DNA of 63,679 nt, the filler included, from Folioceros fuciformis (Eukaryota): the NCBI GenBank assembly GCA_049999805.1. It is 7 parts of 7 records of this genome, joined end to end, with 100 filler letters (N's around TTAATTAATTAA, not from the genome) between each part and the next. Parts side by side here need not be neighbours in the genome. Positions count along the whole stretch, not along the records: positions 16,623 to 37,807 come from JBNGIO010003505.1; 6 more parts are not named here. One strand, 5' to 3'. Positions 31,825-44,100 of the stretch are shown piece by piece (position 1 is the first letter of the stretch; each line of letters opens with the position of its first letter). The notes beneath the pieces are model-generated. The model searched no databases and was not told the origin of the DNA. It was given only the letters and a program-made list of their open reading frames with translations. The position numbers were made by a program, and so were the translations under genes.

Positions 31825-32870
31825 GTCTCCGGAGGACCCGGGATCTCTTATCCTCACAAGCCCGTTGGTCATGTCTTCTTGTTCCTCCTTCCTTTGTGGG
31901 AGTATGACGGGACTTCAGGTCACCCTCATGGAAAAGCATTATGGGCAAGAGTTGCAGGCCCTCCTACTAGATTCCTCCAATGACAAGCAGGCCCGAGCAC
32001 GCCTTCGATCTTGTTCAGGGAAGGGCGCTGGCTCTTGGCCCATCCATGCATCAAGGCTTTCTGAATCGCATCAGCTTCTTTCTCTACTGCGATGAGGTTT
32101 CGCCTTGACTTGGTCTAGCCGTTGGCCTAGTCTCTCTCTTCTTGTAGCTGTGGGGTCCTCCTCGACGACCCCAAGACCCACCTGGCGCGTTACTCGATCG
32201 GCGGGCAATGCATCGCCACCCATAATGCAGTGAGGGACGATATGTTTTCTTTGGCCAAGGAGGCTAGTTTCTTCCCCTAGAAGGAGCGTCCATATACCTT
32301 GCTCAACGGCGGCTCCCTCATTGCAAACCTTTTCCTAACCAAGGGGGACCAGGTTTCTATAGCAGATGTGGTTGCCACAGACCCCACTCAAACAACCATC
32401 AGTAAGCATGTCATTATCAACTCCCCAAGTTGGGCAGTAGAAGGAAGCGTGACAAGGAAGACTTGCCAGTACATACCCCCTTGCTATTGAAACGCACAGG
32501 GCCATGAGTAAGAATTTTTCCAAGTTTTTGAAGACCTGCATAAAGGCCCATCATGTCAATAGAAGCGACGTAGGGCTTCCCCTATCTGGCGTGGTGGCAT
32601 TTTTGTGGCAATCGGTTTCGATTGCACTACAAAAGGCCTTCGCAAATGCAATTTTTCAAGCAATATCAAGCGCGGTGGATGCAATGACAACAGCCCCGGT
32701 GCTTGTACCTTATATCTAAATATGACATCTTGGGAATGATAGGGAGTTACAAGATAGGCGAACGATAGGGCTAGGCCCTCCATTCTTGGCTTTCCCCCAT
32801 TGCAGGTTGTTCCCCTTGTCACGGGGTAGATGAAACTTCCATCTCTTTTTTCCTATGCAGTCTTCAAATT
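31825..32870 (+). mobile_element. 5'-truncated CRE/SLACS-like non-LTR retrotransposon (C-terminal Zn-knuckle and restriction-like endonuclease remnant) with a 14-bp TSD
   Basis: Degenerate translation ARLRSCSGKGAGSW, STAMRFRL, CSCG..LD...HLAR....IATHNAVRD, ADVVATDP, RK...Y, AIET.G, WQSVSIALQKAFANAI. Direct repeat CACCACCTAAAAGG at 31811-31824 and 32871-32884. Confidence 0.75.
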
Positions 32871-34841: not shown

Positions 34842-35015
34842 GGAGCGGTGTGGCCTAGGGCGGAATGGTGGAGCGGTGTGGCCTAGGGCGAAGCGGTGGG
34901 GCAGTATGGTGTGGTGCACTACGGTGGAGCGATGTGGCCTAGGGCAGAATGGTGCACTACGGTGGAGTGGTGTAGCCTAGGGCGGAATGGTGGAGCAGTA
35001 TGGTGCGGTGTACTA
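34842..35015. repeat. G-rich mosaic minisatellite
   Basis: GGAGCGGTGTGGCCTAGGGCGGAATGGT-type units interleaved with GGTGCACTAC units. Confidence 0.7.
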
Positions 35016-35899
35016 TGATGGAAGGGTGTGGCGGTATACGCAGGAGTGTTGTAGAGCGTGTGGCCGTATACGCAGGAGTATTGTAGAGCATGGCCCAAGT
35101 ACGCGCTTTAAATAGGTCATGGCATACCTGTCATGAAGGTGACTGCCGATTAGGTAAGAAACCTTCAGCCAATGTTGTTTAGAATAGGATAGCAAATATA
35201 TGTTTTAAATGCTAGGATAAATAACTTAGCTTAGGTAGATATTTCGCAAACTAGCTTAGAAATAGCTAGATGTTTCTAGGCAAGTTGAGTTTGAACACAT
35301 GTTGGGTATTTCCCAACTTGTTGTTGGTGTAACCCTGCTGCCCACCGTGGCAACGTGGGGAAACAACAGAACTTAGGGTACTCTAGTAAGGCATCATGGA
35401 AGGAGTAGTGTTGATGCAAGGGCGTGAAGCCAACTCAGCTGGACGTTGGATCATGAAGATGGCTGGCGTTAGGCAAAAGGGGCAGCCATGGCAGAAGTCG
35501 ATAGTTGTTGAAGTTGTGCCGCGCAGCACTGTAACTAGGGGAAGGCAGCTCAAACCATGTTTTTGTGTTCTCTCGAATTGGGAGCTAGGATGAAGAACAT
35601 TTTTCAGTGCCTTTGATTCCAGTGTTGCAGTTCATGGCATAACTTACTAACTCACCAAGCTGCATGTGTCGCGCAGCTCCTTTCAAACCCAGATTGCTGC
35701 AAGGTTTTGCTACAATCTCTTCGAATCAGAATCTTTCATTTTCAAGCATGGACTGTCTTCACTTGCAGCCGATTGTGCTGGAATTTGTGACCTGGAGAGT
35801 AGTGGGGAAATAGCATTAGGATACAGGTACAAATGCTGAATGTGCAAGCCTAGAACCCCAAGCTTCAAGTGGGTGCTGGCCAGACTCAGGACTCACTCA

Positions 35900-36476
35900 T
35901 CATAACATTGCCCTAGCACGACATACCTTGTCAACCTTAGCTGACTCCAATCGAGATTTTGCTGCTAGTAGATCCTCCTCCTGAAGAGCTTGCCAATCTC
36001 CAGATCGAAAACGGCGAAGTCGAGAGGCCACCTCCCTATGACCTGATGGACCACCCCTAGAGCATCGAAGGCACCATCTAGGCAGGAAAAGGAACAAAAT
36101 CCAAGCACCCTCATCCCTCGAGTGCCGAGCAAGGCGATCCAAGGGAAGACGATAAGCAAGGCGAATATCATCATGTAGGCGCCTAGGGAGACGTCGAAAG
36201 AGGCGAGGACATGGAAAAGAGCCAACAAGTGATCATATTGCCCTCGAAGCCACAACCAAGCCTCTGGGGACGGCCCTAGAGGATCTGTTAGAAAAGGATT
36301 GGTAGCTGGTTCGGAGGAAGAAGCAAGTCGCACTTGTGCCACCCAAGTGGTCCTATCGAAGTCTTTATGCTTATGACCAATATGGCACTTCACCCCCTTG
36401 ACCTCAGAGTAAAGTTAAGAACACACACTGGGCAAGGGGTGTCCTTGACAGGTAAAGGCTGGGTGTCATATGCCAT
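35900..36476 (-). mobile_element. N-terminal part of a CRE/SLACS-like retrotransposon ORF (C2H2 zinc finger and pre-RT region), frameshifted
   Basis: ATG at 36476: MAYDTQPLPVKDTPCPVC-(frameshift)-YSEVKGVKCHIGHKH, then GAWILFLFLPRWCLR...GG...RLRRFRSGDWQAL, typical of the region before the CRE-type RT. Confidence 0.65.
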
Positions 36477-36584
36477 GTGATAGAGGCATGTAGAAAGTCT
36501 TGTAAATGATCAAAACCAAACAATTGTACTCCTTATTGTAACCCATAACCCTATAATGCCCTCCATATGCTCCACTCTAAGCCA

Positions 36585-37058
36585 CTCAACCCTAGACCCA
36601 TTTGCTCCACAATGTTTATAAAATGCTAAACCCACTTTTCTCGATGGTGTAACTAAACCCTAAACCTATTTAGCTCTGCCATGTCACGAAACCCTAAACC
36701 TATTTTTGCTTCATAATCCTGATAAAACCCTAATCCATTTTTCTCTACTATGTCGGTACACCCTAAACCCACTCCATCCTACTATACGGCTAAACCCTAA
36801 ACCTATTCTGCTCCATCATGTCGCTAAATCCTAAACCTATTTTTCTCCGTAATGCCTCTAAACCCTACATCCATTCTCCCCCGCCATGCCCTAAATCCAT
36901 TCTGTTACTGCCATGCTTGTAAACTATAAACCCTTGTTGCTCTGCCATGCCACTAAACCCTAATCTTATTCTGCTATGCCATTTTACTAAACACCAAACT
37001 CATTCCACTTTGCCCTACCACTAAACCTTGAACCCTACTTGCTTGCTCCACCATGTCG
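36585..37058. repeat. About 14 copies of a 34-bp minisatellite built on plant telomere units
   Basis: Consensus CTAAACCCTAAACC-TATTYTGCTCYRCCATGTCR; units start near 36653, 36687, 36723, 36756, 36790, 36824, 36858, 36919, 36953, 36987 and 37021. Confidence 0.85.
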
Positions 37059-37807
37059 GTATATGTCGCATGTTGGGCAGGGATGGTGAATATGCTCGGG
37101 CTGCTAGAGCATTGCGCTCAAAGCCAGCTGCATCTGCAACTGAGGACACCATTGCTGCACTTCGTGCCCTTCATCCAGAACCTCATGATACTATACCGCA
37201 AGATCTTCTTGACCACACGGTCGAGGAGCCTTTTTGCTTGGATAGGGTTGTTTTTGGGCATGCACTCTCTTCTGCGCCGCAACTTTCTTCAGGGGGTTTG
37301 TCTGGCACAAGTTATGACCATTTTCGAGATTATTTTTCTCCTGAGGATCCCTTAAGTGGTTTTTCGTAGCTTTATACACTAGCAGTTGCTGTGGCTAGGG
37401 GCGAAGTTCCCAATCGAATCTCTCAAGTTTTGGTGGCTAGTAGGCTACTTGCATTGGAAAAGCCAACCTCAGGAGTGCGCCCTGTTGCTGTGGGGGAGGT
37501 ATTTTTGTGCCTTATCAGCTGAAGTATCACAATTCAACTTTGGGAGTACTTCCAAGCGCATCTTGCACCCCACCAATTTGGGATTGCTACCCTAGGTGGG
37601 TGTAAATCTGCCACTCTCGGCATCCAGGCGGCCCTTGAGTTACATCCTCACGGGGTAGCTTTGTAGGTTGATATTGAGAATGCTTTCAATACCGTCTCTA
37701 GGGTCACCATCTTCTCGGGGCTCAAGAGTGCAGGAGGTCAATTAACAAGTCTTATCCCTTTTGTTTGCTCCTTCTATGGCTCGCCATCCAAGCTCTACTA
37801 CCAACAC
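37059..37807 (+). mobile_element. Reverse transcriptase region of a CRE/SLACS-like non-LTR retrotransposon; in-frame stops; cut by the contig end
   Basis: GEYARAARAL, ALRALHP, SSGGLSG, RLLALEKPTSGVRPVAVGEV, LAPHQFG..GG, VDIENAFNTVSR, SFYGSPSKLYY in one frame with about three stop codons. Confidence 0.85.
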
Positions 37808-37907
37808 NNNNNNNNNNNNNNNNNNNNNNNNNNNNNNNNNNNNNNNNNNNNTTAATTAATTAANNNNNNNNNNNNNNNNNNNNNNNNNNNNNNNNNNNNN
37901 NNNNNNN
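37808..37907. other. Artificial contig linker
   Basis: N-run/TTAATTAATTAA/N-run. Confidence 0.95.
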
Positions 37908-40318
37908 GATCTGATTTGTATGGCTTCATCTCAAAAGACAATTCATCTCAAAAGACAAGTACACCACGAGTCAGGATGTGTCGTGAGACTTACCACGTCG
38001 AGAAGCAAAGCATTAACTTCCTGCTCATCCACAGCTACAGTAGCAGCCACGGTGGTTCGAGAAGCCCTGCTGCTGCTGGTACTAATCACCACGTCTGTGT
38101 CCAAGCCCTGCGAAGGTGACGTGTTCGGAGGCAATTCAGTCAACGAGACTGGAAAAGCTTATTCCAGATTCGAACTAGCTTGAAAACCATGTTGTAACAT
38201 GTGGTTAGTCACCTGGACTGCTGAGAATATCTTCTCTAGATCTTTGGCGAAGCTTTCCAGATCCACTTCCTTGTCAGTGGCACCCATTTGATTCAGGGCA
38301 GCTGCCATTGCCTTGTATTGCCCACTTCCTAACGAGGTCAAAAAAACTTCCATTGCTGCCCATGTTGCTGGTGAAATGCGCCCAACAATGCCTGCTCAGG
38401 ACAATGTCGTTCACTGGTCAATGAAACGTTACAGAAACTCAGAATTGTGGATGTCGATTTCCCACTGTGGATGACATATTGGAGATAAAAATGTTTACCA
38501 AAGTCGATGAACCCCACCCGGCCGTCTCTCAGCACCAGTAGATTACCAGCATGTAGATCTGCATGAAAGCTCTCCGAAGCTACCAAGCTTCCAAACCTGC
38601 GTTTGGCAAATGGATCCGAGAGAATGATGAATTTCATCCCGTAAAATGATGGAAACTATGTCAAGGGAGCAGCAAAACGCATGCGTACCAAACATTCAGA
38701 GCCGATATTAACGTGGCCTCAGGATTGGGCACAGTTGCCCGAATGGCATCCAAATCTGTCAAGGGAACTCCATACAGACGCTCCATTGTCAATATCCGCC
38801 GTGAACTGCAATGAGGATATACGGTCGGGGCCTTGGCTTGGTTGGTTAGACCACTCCTCTCCAAGTATGTTCTAAACGACTGAATATTGATGGCTTCCTT
38901 CCTGAAATCAACTTCCTCCAACATGGATGTCCGGATGTCTCCAATGATTCCAACCTATCCACCATCACATTCTCAAAGTCTTAAGACACCATTGCCCCAA
39001 ACGAAGGGACGACCATCCACGCTCATCTCACGCAACCAGATGTCGGTAACCAGAGAAAGACATGGGTCAATTAACATACCAATGACGTGCGACTGAGTTG
39101 AGGATTCAGAAATTCCAGCACACGTGCAGTAATGTACAGGAAATTCAGATCTGCTGTTAGGATGTCCTCCGCTCCAGGTTTAAGGACCTTGATAACGACA
39201 TCTGCCCCAGTACCCCTGAGTCGTGCTGCATGAACCTGTACATGTGTAAGACCTTGGGCAATGGGGATGAGTACCTCAATAGCGCCAGGACAAAAAACAG
39301 CGAACATGGTGAAGCCAATGGACCTGAGCAACAGAAGCAGAAGCGATCGGTTGGGAGTCCACGTGCTCGTAGACTTCTTCCAAGGGCCTACCAAGCTCTT
39401 CACGTATGATGGCTTTTATGTCATCGAAAGGAACAGGTGGTGTTTTGTCGAGACAGCTCTGGAACTCTTTCACGTATTCTGCTGGGAAGAGCGTTGGTGC
39501 AGAGGCTATGAACTTACATACAAACAGGTCAAATGCCCAGAAACCTATCACCATCACTGAAACATCATAAAAGGAAACGAACCATCCATATCCTGACAAA
39601 TGCACATTCTGACCTGACCCAACTTGATGTAGGTTGCTCCCAGCCGCTCGAAAAGCTTCCGGAGCTGTGTGGGGCCGGGTGGAATAACTGCGAGACCGGC
39701 AACATTGCCAATAGCAGCTCCAGAATTCTGCACACCAGCGCAGAATTAGCTGCCATGGGCAGTCCTCGGACGCGAGAAATTACACACCTTCGTATCTTTG
39801 TGAGGAAGAAGTGAATACTTGTGACTGCTGGGACTGCTCCCGGATCCATTCAGCTCCAACGGTCACAACAGCTTCAATCCCTTGAAAGAGCCTAACAGCA
39901 CCCCTAGGGCCCGTGCTAACAGTGGTGCGTACCACTTCTTCCACCAATTCGTTGAACTTCTTGAACCTCTCTGCGATACCATCCCCACATAAAGTTCCTT
40001 CAACTTCCTTCCCACACTCACAACAGGAACCAGCGTGAGCCTCAGGGCGTCCTACCGTACATGGCAGGTCAGATCCTAGAAAATACCTTGTCCCTGCTTC
40101 TTGTCGAACGTAGTGGACGAGGAAGACGAAGTTGATGCTGCTGATGATGATCGAGCCCCCACCGCCCAGCGATTCTGCCTGCTCCCAGTCGCATTCTTCA
40201 GCGTTTGCGCTGCCCACTCTACGCTGTTGCGACGCAGCCACACTCCTTCCTGCCACAGCTCCGAACCAGTTAGGGGAATGTACGGATTTCTCACAGTGGG
40301 CAATACCTGCCCAGCCAT
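37908..40318 (-). CDS. ABC1/UbiB atypical kinase (plastid ABC1K9-like); multi-exon, 3' end cut by the contig edge
   Basis: [33 protein letters not shown] (KxGQ motif), PIASASVAQVH, VVIKVLKPG, EEVDFRKEA, FHADLHAGN, GFIDFGIVG. Confidence 0.92.
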
Positions 40319-41161
40319 CCATTCTCCAAATTCGTGTACTCAGTCAGTCAACAAACAGACTCCACGTTCAACTTTGTGTGCCTCCATCATTCATACCAAC
40401 ACCATACACAGCTGCCACGAATTCCTCCAGACCACCAAACCTGGCGAGTGAAAGAGGATGGAAAACGGGCGTATGTCGTCAGCGCCATGTTGGCCCTGAT
40501 GTGTAGACGACCCACCAAATTCACCTGCAGACAAGCTTCAAATCAAATTGAGGAGACGAAAGCCTGGATTGGACAAAACCTCTCATCCAATGCCAGAATC
40601 TTTTCCTCGAGAAGGACCGGTCTTTCGAAGGAGTGGTCCACGTCGACCACGTTGGACCATCCGCTACTTCCGAACTATTTTCGGAACAAGGCAATTGTGT
40701 CGTAGCAAAGCTCCAATCTTCCAGTCAACAAACCACACTTTAATAATATTGAATATCAAAACGCTAGCGGATAATGCTAGCAGGAGACGATTTGCTCCTC
40801 AAAATATCAACACATAACGTTAATGAGTTCCCAGATCAGCATATCTACTCGGGACCCTGTGTCGAAGTATAGGTGTATGTCCTACTGAGCACAGGATCTC
40901 CACAGAAGACACATCTTTACATCTTTGGTGCACTCCGATTCCAGAGATTTCCCGTCCTCACAGCAAGACCAAAAACCGTAAAATCACACATAGCTATAGC
41001 CGAAGTAGAAGATCACAACTATATCCCGAAGAGCCGCCGCATATGGTATGATCTAACCTGCGTGACGGTTTCCCAGAGCAGCACCTTCGTACCTTGAGTC
41101 ACTGCATCTGGCTGTGCGCACTAGTTTGTTTTCTGATTCTGTTGAGCTTGATTGGACTGTC

Positions 41162-44100
41162 TCATGCCACCGCTTTTGCTGACACGAGACCAGATGCTTT
41201 CTTTTCAGGTGGAGCCTGCAGCACGGCTTCAGCAACATGTGCATCGTTGACAAAAGGTTCGATTTGAGCTTTCTTCTCCTGCTTCTCGATGACGTCCTCC
41301 GAATCATTGGCCCGGGGCACAGTGCTTGCCTGGACCACGAGGACAACAATTTAATTTTTAACAACCCCTTTGTTATCAAGTAAGGCACCGAGAAGGAAGA
41401 ACTAGACTCACCAGAGCTCGGAATTTCAGGATGTAAAACATTTCAAGGTAGCGTCTGGTATCACGCCGACCAAGCTCGGACACGTATTTCCAGAATCCGT
41501 AGACTTGACCCAGTGTCAACAGCCTGTCCGCGTAGATGTTCCAAGTGTACCTGTAGAGAGGACGTGAGATGACCAGCGTACCATGAAAGGGTGTGCACGG
41601 TCGACAGACATTGAACAATCTACTTACTTGCTGTAAATCCTCTTCAGACTGTCATTGGAGATCTGGTCCCAGTAGCCAGGCTCTGCTTTGCATTTAGTGA
41701 AGAACTCCAGAATGACCTTGCTAGCGGCATCCCCGTGGTACGGATCAATGTGGAAGCCAGAGATGCCATTTTCAATGATTTCAGCAGGTCCACCCTGCGA
41801 GGTTGCAATTGTCGGAAGCCCGCAGCTCATCGCTTCCACCACCGTCAACCCGAAAGCCTCGTACAATGCAGGCTGCAATAGGACAAACAAGCCCATCAGC
41901 ATGCTGCACTCCACCAGCATTTCGAACGTTCGTAACAGGAGAACGCGGGATGGTCTGCTGCAATGATACCTGCACAAAAGCACCGCGAGTGTCTGCAATG
42001 CAGCGGTACAGCTCTCCGTTTCGAACAGGATCCTTCTGGGCGCGGATCCATCTGAACTCTCCTCCATTCAGGTTGTACTTCTTTATCAACTCATGCATCT
42101 TCAATATCTCCTTCACCTCCTCACGGTCCTTGGACTTCTCGGGGTTGATGTCCCCAGCTACCACAACCAAATTCACCAAGCTCCTCAGCTTTGCATTCTC
42201 CCCGAACCACTCGACAAGGCCAGTCATGTTCTTCACACGATCCAGACGTGCCATTGAGAATATTATGGGCTTTGCCTTGTCGGTCAGCACCCCACTGCAA
42301 ATCGCAAGAGATGAAAAAAACGTCAATAGCAACGCTTTCAAATGTCGCCTGTCTCTCCCAGACAAATCATCTCTGCGGAGAACGAAGTAAACAGAAGACA
42401 GCAGACGGGCGCAGCGAGTGGCACACACATGTGTTCGTCTGTCTGAGCATCGTTGTACAGCAAATCCTGGATCTCTGGCTGCAGATGTTTGAGGCGCTTC
42501 GCATCCTGAGAGAAGGGAAAGTAGATAGACTCCTCCGCTCCAGGGGACACGATGTTGAATTTGGGGTCGAAGACGTCGATCCCATTCACAACTCTGTAAA
42601 GCCCAGGAAGAGTGAAAGCAGTATGGCTTTCGTACTGCCCCACAGTGTTCTCGCTGCCATGAGAACAGAGTGATCAGCAACGACAAGGAACGACGCACTA
42701 CCACGAAGTTCGCTTTGCACAATCACACAAGCACAATTGTCAGACAGACCTTCCAGCAATCTCCTGATACGAGCTGGTGATGATAAAATCCGCGTGGTTC
42801 ATTGCAATAAGGTCCGCGGTGAACTGGCACGAGAAATGGTACTTCTCCTCATAGTTGCGCCAGTAGAGATCTGAGTCGGGGTACTTCGTCTTCTCCAATG
42901 CATGAGCTATGTTGCACTGAAACACGGCAGGCATTCGTAAATCTCGGGTGCATCGCGAGAGCACTCACGTACACGAGTGCATGATCCTCAAAACAACGTA
43001 TGTACAACCACCAACACACCTGTGTGATCTTCAACCTGTGCGACAGCAATGTAGCCACCAGATTTCCGTCACTGTAGTTCCCAATGATGAAATCAGGCTG
43101 GCGTGTAAATTCGGAGCGCATCTCGTTGGCAACATCCTGCAAATGAATTCCAAAAGTTTAGAGGCATGCAGATGCAGGGTCATCCGACAACGACACCATT
43201 ACATCACACACCTCTGTGAAGCGTTCGAGGTATGGCCAGACATCAAAACGAGAAATCCAGCGCCGCAACACAGACCCGTCTTCGTTACGGAAAGGAACTC
43301 GCAGTATGCGAGCGTACTCAGTGCCATGAACTCGCTCGATCCTCTGGTTGCAGGTCGTGCCTTGAGCTTCAGGAATGAGGCGAGTTACCTACATCAGGAT
43401 AAGTTACGTCAGTCAAGCTTACGGGCAGAAAATGAGCACGCGCCATATGCAGTATCGAGAAAACCAGAGGCTGAGATCAGCTTACGATGACAATCTGCGG
43501 TTTGATGTCCAAACCCTGCTCCTGAATTTTCCTGATCATAGCTTTCTCCAGCGCGCGAACTTGATCCAAGATATACACCACCTGAAAGACGAGAATGAGC
43601 AGCTGGAATCCACGCGAATACAGCTCAAGCCTCGCAAACCACGTGAGGGTGGTCATGAACAAACATGCACAGGACTCACATCATCACAGGTGCTGACAAT
43701 GTCTCCGTATCGTCCCCTTGCAAAAGCGGAGTCTAGTCTGAGTGATTACACAGCTTACCTGACCACCTGTGTCGGGTAAGCCCAGCACATTCTCCTGGCC
43801 AAAATATCCATGAGGCGAGAGAATAAGCACACTGAAAATCACAGGTACTTTTGCCAAGAACTTTTCCAAAGTATCTGGGTCTGGCGCCTGCAGGATGTCT
43901 AGCAGCAGCCGGATGGTGTCCAGGGTTCGGTCTGCTGTGTTCCCCCATCCTTTCTCCAGGCCCAGCTGCTGCAGTCTGGAAGCGGAAACAAAAGCCGCAT
44001 GAGTCACAACCAAGCGTCGTTCATCTTCCAACAGCCAGGGACCAAGGAGCGTAACGCAATCAGTAAAGAATGGGAGTAGTTACCGTGCTTCGAACTCAGT

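Follow-up and report, generated by a model that had tools for sequence, protein, structure and literature searches.

A dead, internally inverted copy of a probable CRE-like retrotransposon family with a telomere-motif array in its leader

The window studied here, a stretch of 63,679 nucleotides of DNA from Folioceros fuciformis, contains at positions 34842-37807 one copy of a retrotransposon whose parts lie in alternating orientations. The copy opens with a distal 5' leader of type A that is un-inverted (34842-35099, plus strand) and consists, according to TRF, of G-rich tandem repeats of 28/38/32 bp. An internally inverted block follows (35100-37063, minus strand), comprising the array, the ATG and the N-terminal part of the ORF. 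The last ~29 nt of the inverted ORF piece (35100-35128, minus strand), which include a left TSD, TACC, are severed from the remainder by a later insertion, a 795-bp solo LTR from an element of the Ty3/Gypsy type (35129-35923, plus strand) with TG...CA ends and a 4-bp TSD. The N-terminal ORF piece itself (35924-36476, minus strand) starts at an ATG at 36476, where an ATG-context pattern was present in 15 of 16 copies, and encodes a C2H2 finger, the motif GDWQAL and the pre-RT helices. Next comes a telomere-motif array of 34-bp repeats in 15 units (36502-37036, minus strand; TRF period 34), which is the proximal module of the 5' leader. The RT piece (37064-37807, plus strand) keeps its original orientation and shares 82-93% nucleotide identity with 20 other copies; it stops at an assembly gap with linker (37808-37907) at the end of contig G000:C3505, where the 3' part of the element is unassembled, so the 3' end of this copy is unseen. 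A previous, sequence-only reading had placed an ATG at 36476, the finger and GDWQAL on the minus strand and the RT piece on the plus strand, immediately beyond the array, and had called the copy dead. All these pieces are present, and the element is a dead copy, with frameshifts and a stop in the N-terminal piece and three in-frame stops in the RT piece.

Both pieces of the ORF are consecutive parts of the protein, as they had seemed to be, and the inversion is real. The sequence corresponding to 35922 onward is found, at 19 of 19 other RT loci, ~31 nt upstream of the counterpart of 37064 and colinear with it, and the equivalent of the 37063/37064 junction, reached by 22 of 24 other loci, was read through in all 22. 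The ~30 nt absent between the ORF pieces were found reversed at 35100-35128, a segment that corresponds to element positions -10 to -43 in 15 of the 20 long loci, and at the breakpoints this copy lost ~89-107 nt from its leader and 9 nt from its ORF. Moreover, the sequence at 34842-35099 showed 85% identity, in sense orientation, to the leaders of the colinear copies L061, L051, L060 and L053, and 12 of the 14 contigs matching it bear the element, the flanks being unread in the other two (C3190 and C1536). This sense leader gives the order flank, leader A (+), inverted block (-), RT (+) and gap. Thus, the inverted 5' half of the earlier description holds as an inversion but not in its limits, which are 35100-37063 instead of 35900-37058; as un-inverted leader precedes the block, the inversion is internal and not one of the 5' half.

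Most simply, an internal 1.2-kb segment would have been flipped after insertion by two breaks, end-joining and small deletions. An origin in the integration process itself, through template switching or an event akin to twin priming, seems unlikely to us. Both breakpoints lie inside the element, each with a small deletion, and 5'-inverted copies form a known class in L1, which would fit such an origin; however, twin priming joins the flank directly to the inverted part, whereas here 258 bp of sense leader separate them, so that two extra switches would be needed, and the breakpoints are common to no other of the 142 loci with matches. A simple 5' inversion by twin priming was discarded on account of this un-inverted leader. 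A misassembly of repeat copies might be suspected in an assembly fragmented in short contigs, at an element that enters a gap, but we give it very little credit: the left junction (34938-35174; 160 + 75 letters) is spanned at a single-copy depth of 11.3 by a separately assembled contig of a public run (X1), possibly of the same sample as the assembly, and the breakpoint losses (9 and ~100 nt) are consistent. The right junction was not found among the listed bridging pieces of the public-run contigs.

The 795-bp insertion within the inverted block is flanked by TACC at 35125-35128 and 35924-35927, and many genome copies with the same ends were found, the best of them 95% identical. A full relative, L162 (G000:C6131:167026-171757), encodes RT, RNase H, integrase and a PHD finger and has a 4-bp TSD. 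Probably, a Gypsy-type element inserted into the window copy, where a solo repeat of it persists. That this insertion is the younger of the two is suggested by the higher identity to its own family (95% vs 92-93%), and as 35129-35923 is a later insertion, the 'CR' of the protein end previously read as 'KVCR' is derived from it. The ends of the Gypsy-type element were read at L162 plus L123, L125, L126, L128 and L130: the 3' ends at three loci comprise a G-run, part B (597-795), two bases and the full A+B repeat, and at two loci part A (1-594) stands alone before the common internal sequence. This layout is reminiscent of the split direct repeats that characterise elements of the VIPER/TATE type (PMC12278014, partial text), but it occurs in an integrase element.

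The RT piece had 119 matches in its own 87-Mb genome, and a first, loose count gave 501 candidate 3' ends. Judged from twenty loci of 8-10 kb, the family element is ~4.2 kb long, reaching from about -1.6 kb to +2.65 kb relative to an anchor at 37064, and consists of a G-rich tandem-repeat leader, one ORF (C2H2 - RT - CCHC - RLE) and a short 3' UTR; 5' truncation is frequent. The 3' end is fixed at ..TCATAGAAAATA (..TAGAAAATA) and is followed by pyrimidine-rich letters; the poly(A) seen in the trypanosomatid CRE elements was not found at the family 3' end. None of the 20 long loci holds an intact ORF, the longest open frame being 463 aa, and none of the Rfam families, ribozymes included, matched four copies and the window locus at E<=0.1. 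The leaders of older subfamilies are different G-rich, C-poor repeats. Among 19 divergent loci, six had other G-rich repeats upstream of the ORF and one (78% nt identity in the RT) a telomere-motif array, while the missing leaders in many of the others say little, since these loci are truncated or interrupted. The older subfamilies that lack the telomere motif are also dispersed, and therefore this motif is not needed for mobility. Individual copies showed some peculiarities: in L051 (G000:C6148:138200-148100) a long leader-A array is joined straight to the ORF at ~-505, lacking the 34-bp array and the ATG, and L051 and L062 share a 64-bp triplication near the 3' end.

Overlapping natural frames (P0001-P0006) together cover C2H2-RT-CCHC-RLE, the domain set by which the family falls in the R2 group, whose elements have a single ORF with a PD-(D/E)XK-like endonuclease after the RT and lack an APE. 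The RT (P0003) matches RVT_1 with an E value of 3.4e-14, and the N-terminal finger, C-X2-C..H-X4-H in P0006, gave a weak Zn-finger Pfam match (E 3.7e-4) below the cut-off. The RLE motif, C-X1-C-X9-H-X3-C-X8-THD-X19-E-X11-RAD-X12-D..KVHKY, was read in L053 and L059, the only 2 of the 20 loci with an uninterrupted stretch. The CRE pattern, given as C-X1-3-C-X7-8-H-X3-4-C-X9-10-RHD/N-X19-33-E-X9-21-R/KPD-X12-14-D/E in the accessible part of PMC12857005, is nearly matched, apart from the substitutions R>T and P>A and two spacings that are off by one residue. The C2H2 finger, the RVT_1 match and an RLE spacing close to the SLACS/CRE and MoTeR patterns bear out the earlier view of a CRE/SLACS-like protein. 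With the trypanosomatid CRE clade (CRE1, CRE2, SLACS, CZAR) the family shares a single ORF, an RT with C-terminal RLE, an N-terminal zinc finger and internal repeat regions, here modules A and B and the 34-bp array (PMC12278014, in the part seen), as well as a close RLE motif spacing (PMC12857005, partial text). It differs from that clade, whose target is the spliced-leader genes, in having no fixed target, no poly(A), the TSDs known from that clade in only a minority of copies and a land-plant host, and in THD replacing RHD with one-residue differences in spacing.

The nearest named relatives come from a liverwort, Riccia fluitans (44-48%), and a zygnematophyte alga, Closterium (34-36%); these RT proteins are annotated only as hypothetical. 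Both fall in the same part of a quick tree of 72 rows, where the query lies in a 17-row clade (97% support) with four Riccia rows, Closterium forms the neighbouring clade and dinoflagellate-labelled rows are further off; one row (P0316) was dropped as too short, and the rows comprise no named CRE, SLACS, MoTeR, NeSL or R2 references. Such references were likewise not returned for CRE, SLACS or MoTeR by the protein homology searches. A PDB search yielded weak matches only, to a group II intron RT and to R2, and the protein atlas returned RVT_1 clusters, one of them commonest in Streptophyta, which we take as a lead only. We find it probable that the dead element of the window belongs to a dispersed streptophyte family of the R2 group that is CRE-like, lacks poly(A) and has a modular repeat leader. 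No land-plant CRE family and no telomere-motif leader was described in the literature searched, which lay outside most subscription papers and Repbase/Dfam. The family can be described as a variant of the CRE-type RLE retrotransposons, dispersed, streptophyte and with a telo-box array in a modular leader, which may already be catalogued in Repbase/Dfam.

The telomere-motif array that had been noticed at this locus is real. Between 36502 and 37036 there are 15 anchored units, 12 of them 33-36 bp long and the last two degenerate, each with a core GGTTTAGGGTTTAG on the element sense strand, made of two TTTAGGG-type units, and a spacer of ~20 nt. The exact heptamer GGTTTAG is present 11 times, whereas 2000 dinucleotide shuffles contained it 0.36 times on average and never more than 3 times. 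The cores contain TAGGGTTT, the reverse of the telo-box, in 5-9 exact occurrences per copy, and the units are only ~65% alike (TRF). Across 12 units, conservation was 0.86 in motif columns and 0.64 in spacer columns, a comparison biased by the anchoring of the units on the motif. In the genome the array had 46 matches, and at the best 29 other loci of the 46, which were read, it lies inside the element in 29 of 29; the ORF follows directly downstream in 26. Of the remaining three, two lie at contig ends and one is interrupted, and each is preceded by a leader module. Of the two possibilities originally offered, an array carried as 5' leader or an array targeted, the first is the one that these loci bear out. 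A free satellite is ruled out for the same best 29 of 46 matches. Upstream of the array, other copies have repeat module A or repeat module B, and their colinear order of leader, array, ORF and RT shows that the array lies 5' of the ORF in the G-rich sense, as had been predicted. In the young clade, the 34-bp array is a fixed module of the 5' leader, next to the ATG. The idea that its unit arose from leader A or leader B through C>T changes was discarded, as 23 and 25 of 300 shuffles, respectively, reach the score; with the older leader L169 the figure was 5 of 300, in one of 7 tests. The G3 quadruplex pattern is absent from the array and the leaders, and a G-quadruplex role was rejected.

The 3' junctions showed 41 distinct flanks of unique sequence, a small number of which, in divergent subfamilies, are perhaps only loosely matched, and with 41 different flanks there is no site-specific insertion in a tandem host array. 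Among 25 two-ended copies, 7 had a TSD of at least 10 nt (two of them weak) and 18 had none, compared with 2.2% positives in mismatched controls; the TSDs measure 10-14 bp and occur in a minority of copies, and one further TSD of 13 nt was found at L118. Where visible, the TSD begins 4-11 nt beyond the fixed 3' end (e.g. L052:7010, L053, L113, L118). Past the 3' end, pyrimidines occupy positions 1, 2 and 6 in 35, 33 and 32 of 41 cases, the background being about half, and the letters differ between copies, as might result from non-templated purine addition by the RT or by C/U tailing of the RNA. HERO, EhRLE3 and YURECi of the R2 group are likewise RLE elements that lack a specific target (PMC3636483, partial text), but they differ from this family in clade and host. 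R2-group elements integrate by target-primed reverse transcription, in which DNA is nicked by the RLE and the RNA is copied by the RT (PMC3636483, in the same portion), and the enzymes of the present family would act in this way with little target specificity.

The sequence-only reading had also suggested a telomere-associated family that targets the array, comparable to the fungal MoTeR1/FoTeR elements. With these the family shares the domain order, the RAD-X12 motif and variable tandem repeats concentrated 5' of the ORF (PMC12857005, partial text). A telomere-targeting family of that type, with the array as its target or the remnant of a target, would agree with the CRE-like RLE protein, with an array core made of two TTTAGGG-type units and with the (TTTAGGG)n arrays present on 18 contigs of the genome, including contig ends; true subtelomeres, moreover, are poorly assembled in a genome of 7240 contigs. 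The junctions speak against it. None of the 41 3' junctions adjoins a telomere array, and a single heptamer lies within 40 nt in 1 of 41; MoTeR1/FoTeR have telomere repeats as their target, and C-rich repeats flank them on either side, whereas the junctions here consist of unique DNA. The telomere motif lies inside the element at the best 29 of 46 array loci, following other leader modules, and it is G-rich on the sense strand, the opposite of the FoTeR junction repeats (PMC12857005, in the text available). Nor was the 34-bp array present at any of the 18 (TTTAGGG)n loci (128 kb around them) or the element at any of the 7 terminal ones; two short 3' fragments were found at interstitial (TTTAGGG)n loci, against ~0.7 expected from the loose 501 ends. 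Telomere targeting by the family, and with it the supposed subtelomeric location, is not supported, and we regard this explanation as extremely improbable.

The array may have a role in expression. R2-group elements mostly lack a promoter of their own and depend on a transcribed target (PMC3636483, as far as the accessible text goes). As the present family does not lie in a transcribed host array, its modular repeat leader is most likely its own promoter, a putative internal promoter of a dispersed family. In the account that we find probable, the youngest clade gained a telo-box array, possibly a promoter or chromatin-binding module, whose telo-box-like cores could be bound by host TRB/Myb telomere-repeat proteins. 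A single telo-box suffices for TRB binding. TRBs, which have links to PRC2 and PEAT, are present from the streptophyte algae on, although none was found in hornworts or liverworts (10.1101/2022.11.23.517682, partial text). Plant telo-boxes are known as short sites in host gene promoters (same source, same portion), whereas here ~15 putative sites are arrayed at 34-bp spacing upstream of the ATG of a transposon.

Whether the telomere motif does anything is doubtful, and we lean against a function. Without one, an interchangeable G-rich leader repeat, one of several, would have drifted to a TTTAGGG dimer, or once picked one up, and have been carried along by the last successful master element; we regard this as a serious possibility, if short of an even chance. 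The other G-rich, C-poor repeats of the older-subfamily leaders fit this account, as do just 5-9 exact TAGGGTTT per copy and units ~65% alike, from which the array would already have been decaying before the last burst. On the other hand, the sampled young copies that reach the array keep its position, except L051, conservation favours the motif half over the spacer half in the biased comparison given above, and the unit has no significant homology to leaders A and B (23 and 25 of 300 shuffles). A more elaborate proposal, which we put forward as a speculation with a low chance of being right, is that the lineage left array-specific insertion by building a promoter from swappable repeat modules, and that the phased telomere-repeat array of the last clade recruits TRB/Myb. 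With telomerase, PRC2 or PEAT partners, these proteins might control or shelter transcription, a telomere mimicry for regulation and not for targeting. As a separate observation, leader B (e.g. L047, L049, L064) has TGGGCC adjoining TAGGGTTT, which presumably resembles the site II + telo-box pair of plant translation-gene promoters.

Taken as a family, this is an ancient RLE-type LINE at high copy number in a land plant, dispersed and not site-specific. A 2025 review states, in the part available, that telomeric retrotransposon arrays of such kind are unknown in plants (PMC12477314); the reading of a plant MoTeR at telomeres fails, and the locus leaves that statement unchanged. The questions it raises concern a telo-box array as a regulatory module of a transposon and the transcription of R2-group elements outside host arrays.

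Beyond the assembly gap, an ABC1-type kinase-like gene, so labelled on what we take to be its motifs, and a sucrose synthase lie on the minus strand of the window at 38100-43500. By its sequence matches, the sucrose synthase marks the host as a land plant; it is divergent, with no listed relative above 79%, and its top matches carry lycophyte, fern, gymnosperm and angiosperm labels, so the previous assignment to a seed-free plant is compatible with the matches but is not proven by them. On the other side of the element, 2 kb upstream, the window holds a second, more divergent family fragment (31844-32704, plus strand; RLE region, 50-61% aa identity, with stops). Two copies or fragments within 1-2 kb of each other, in tandem or inverted, were also seen at G000:C5939, C4256, C3018, C6247, L118, L019 and L181, and such pairs at several loci may reflect local clustering.
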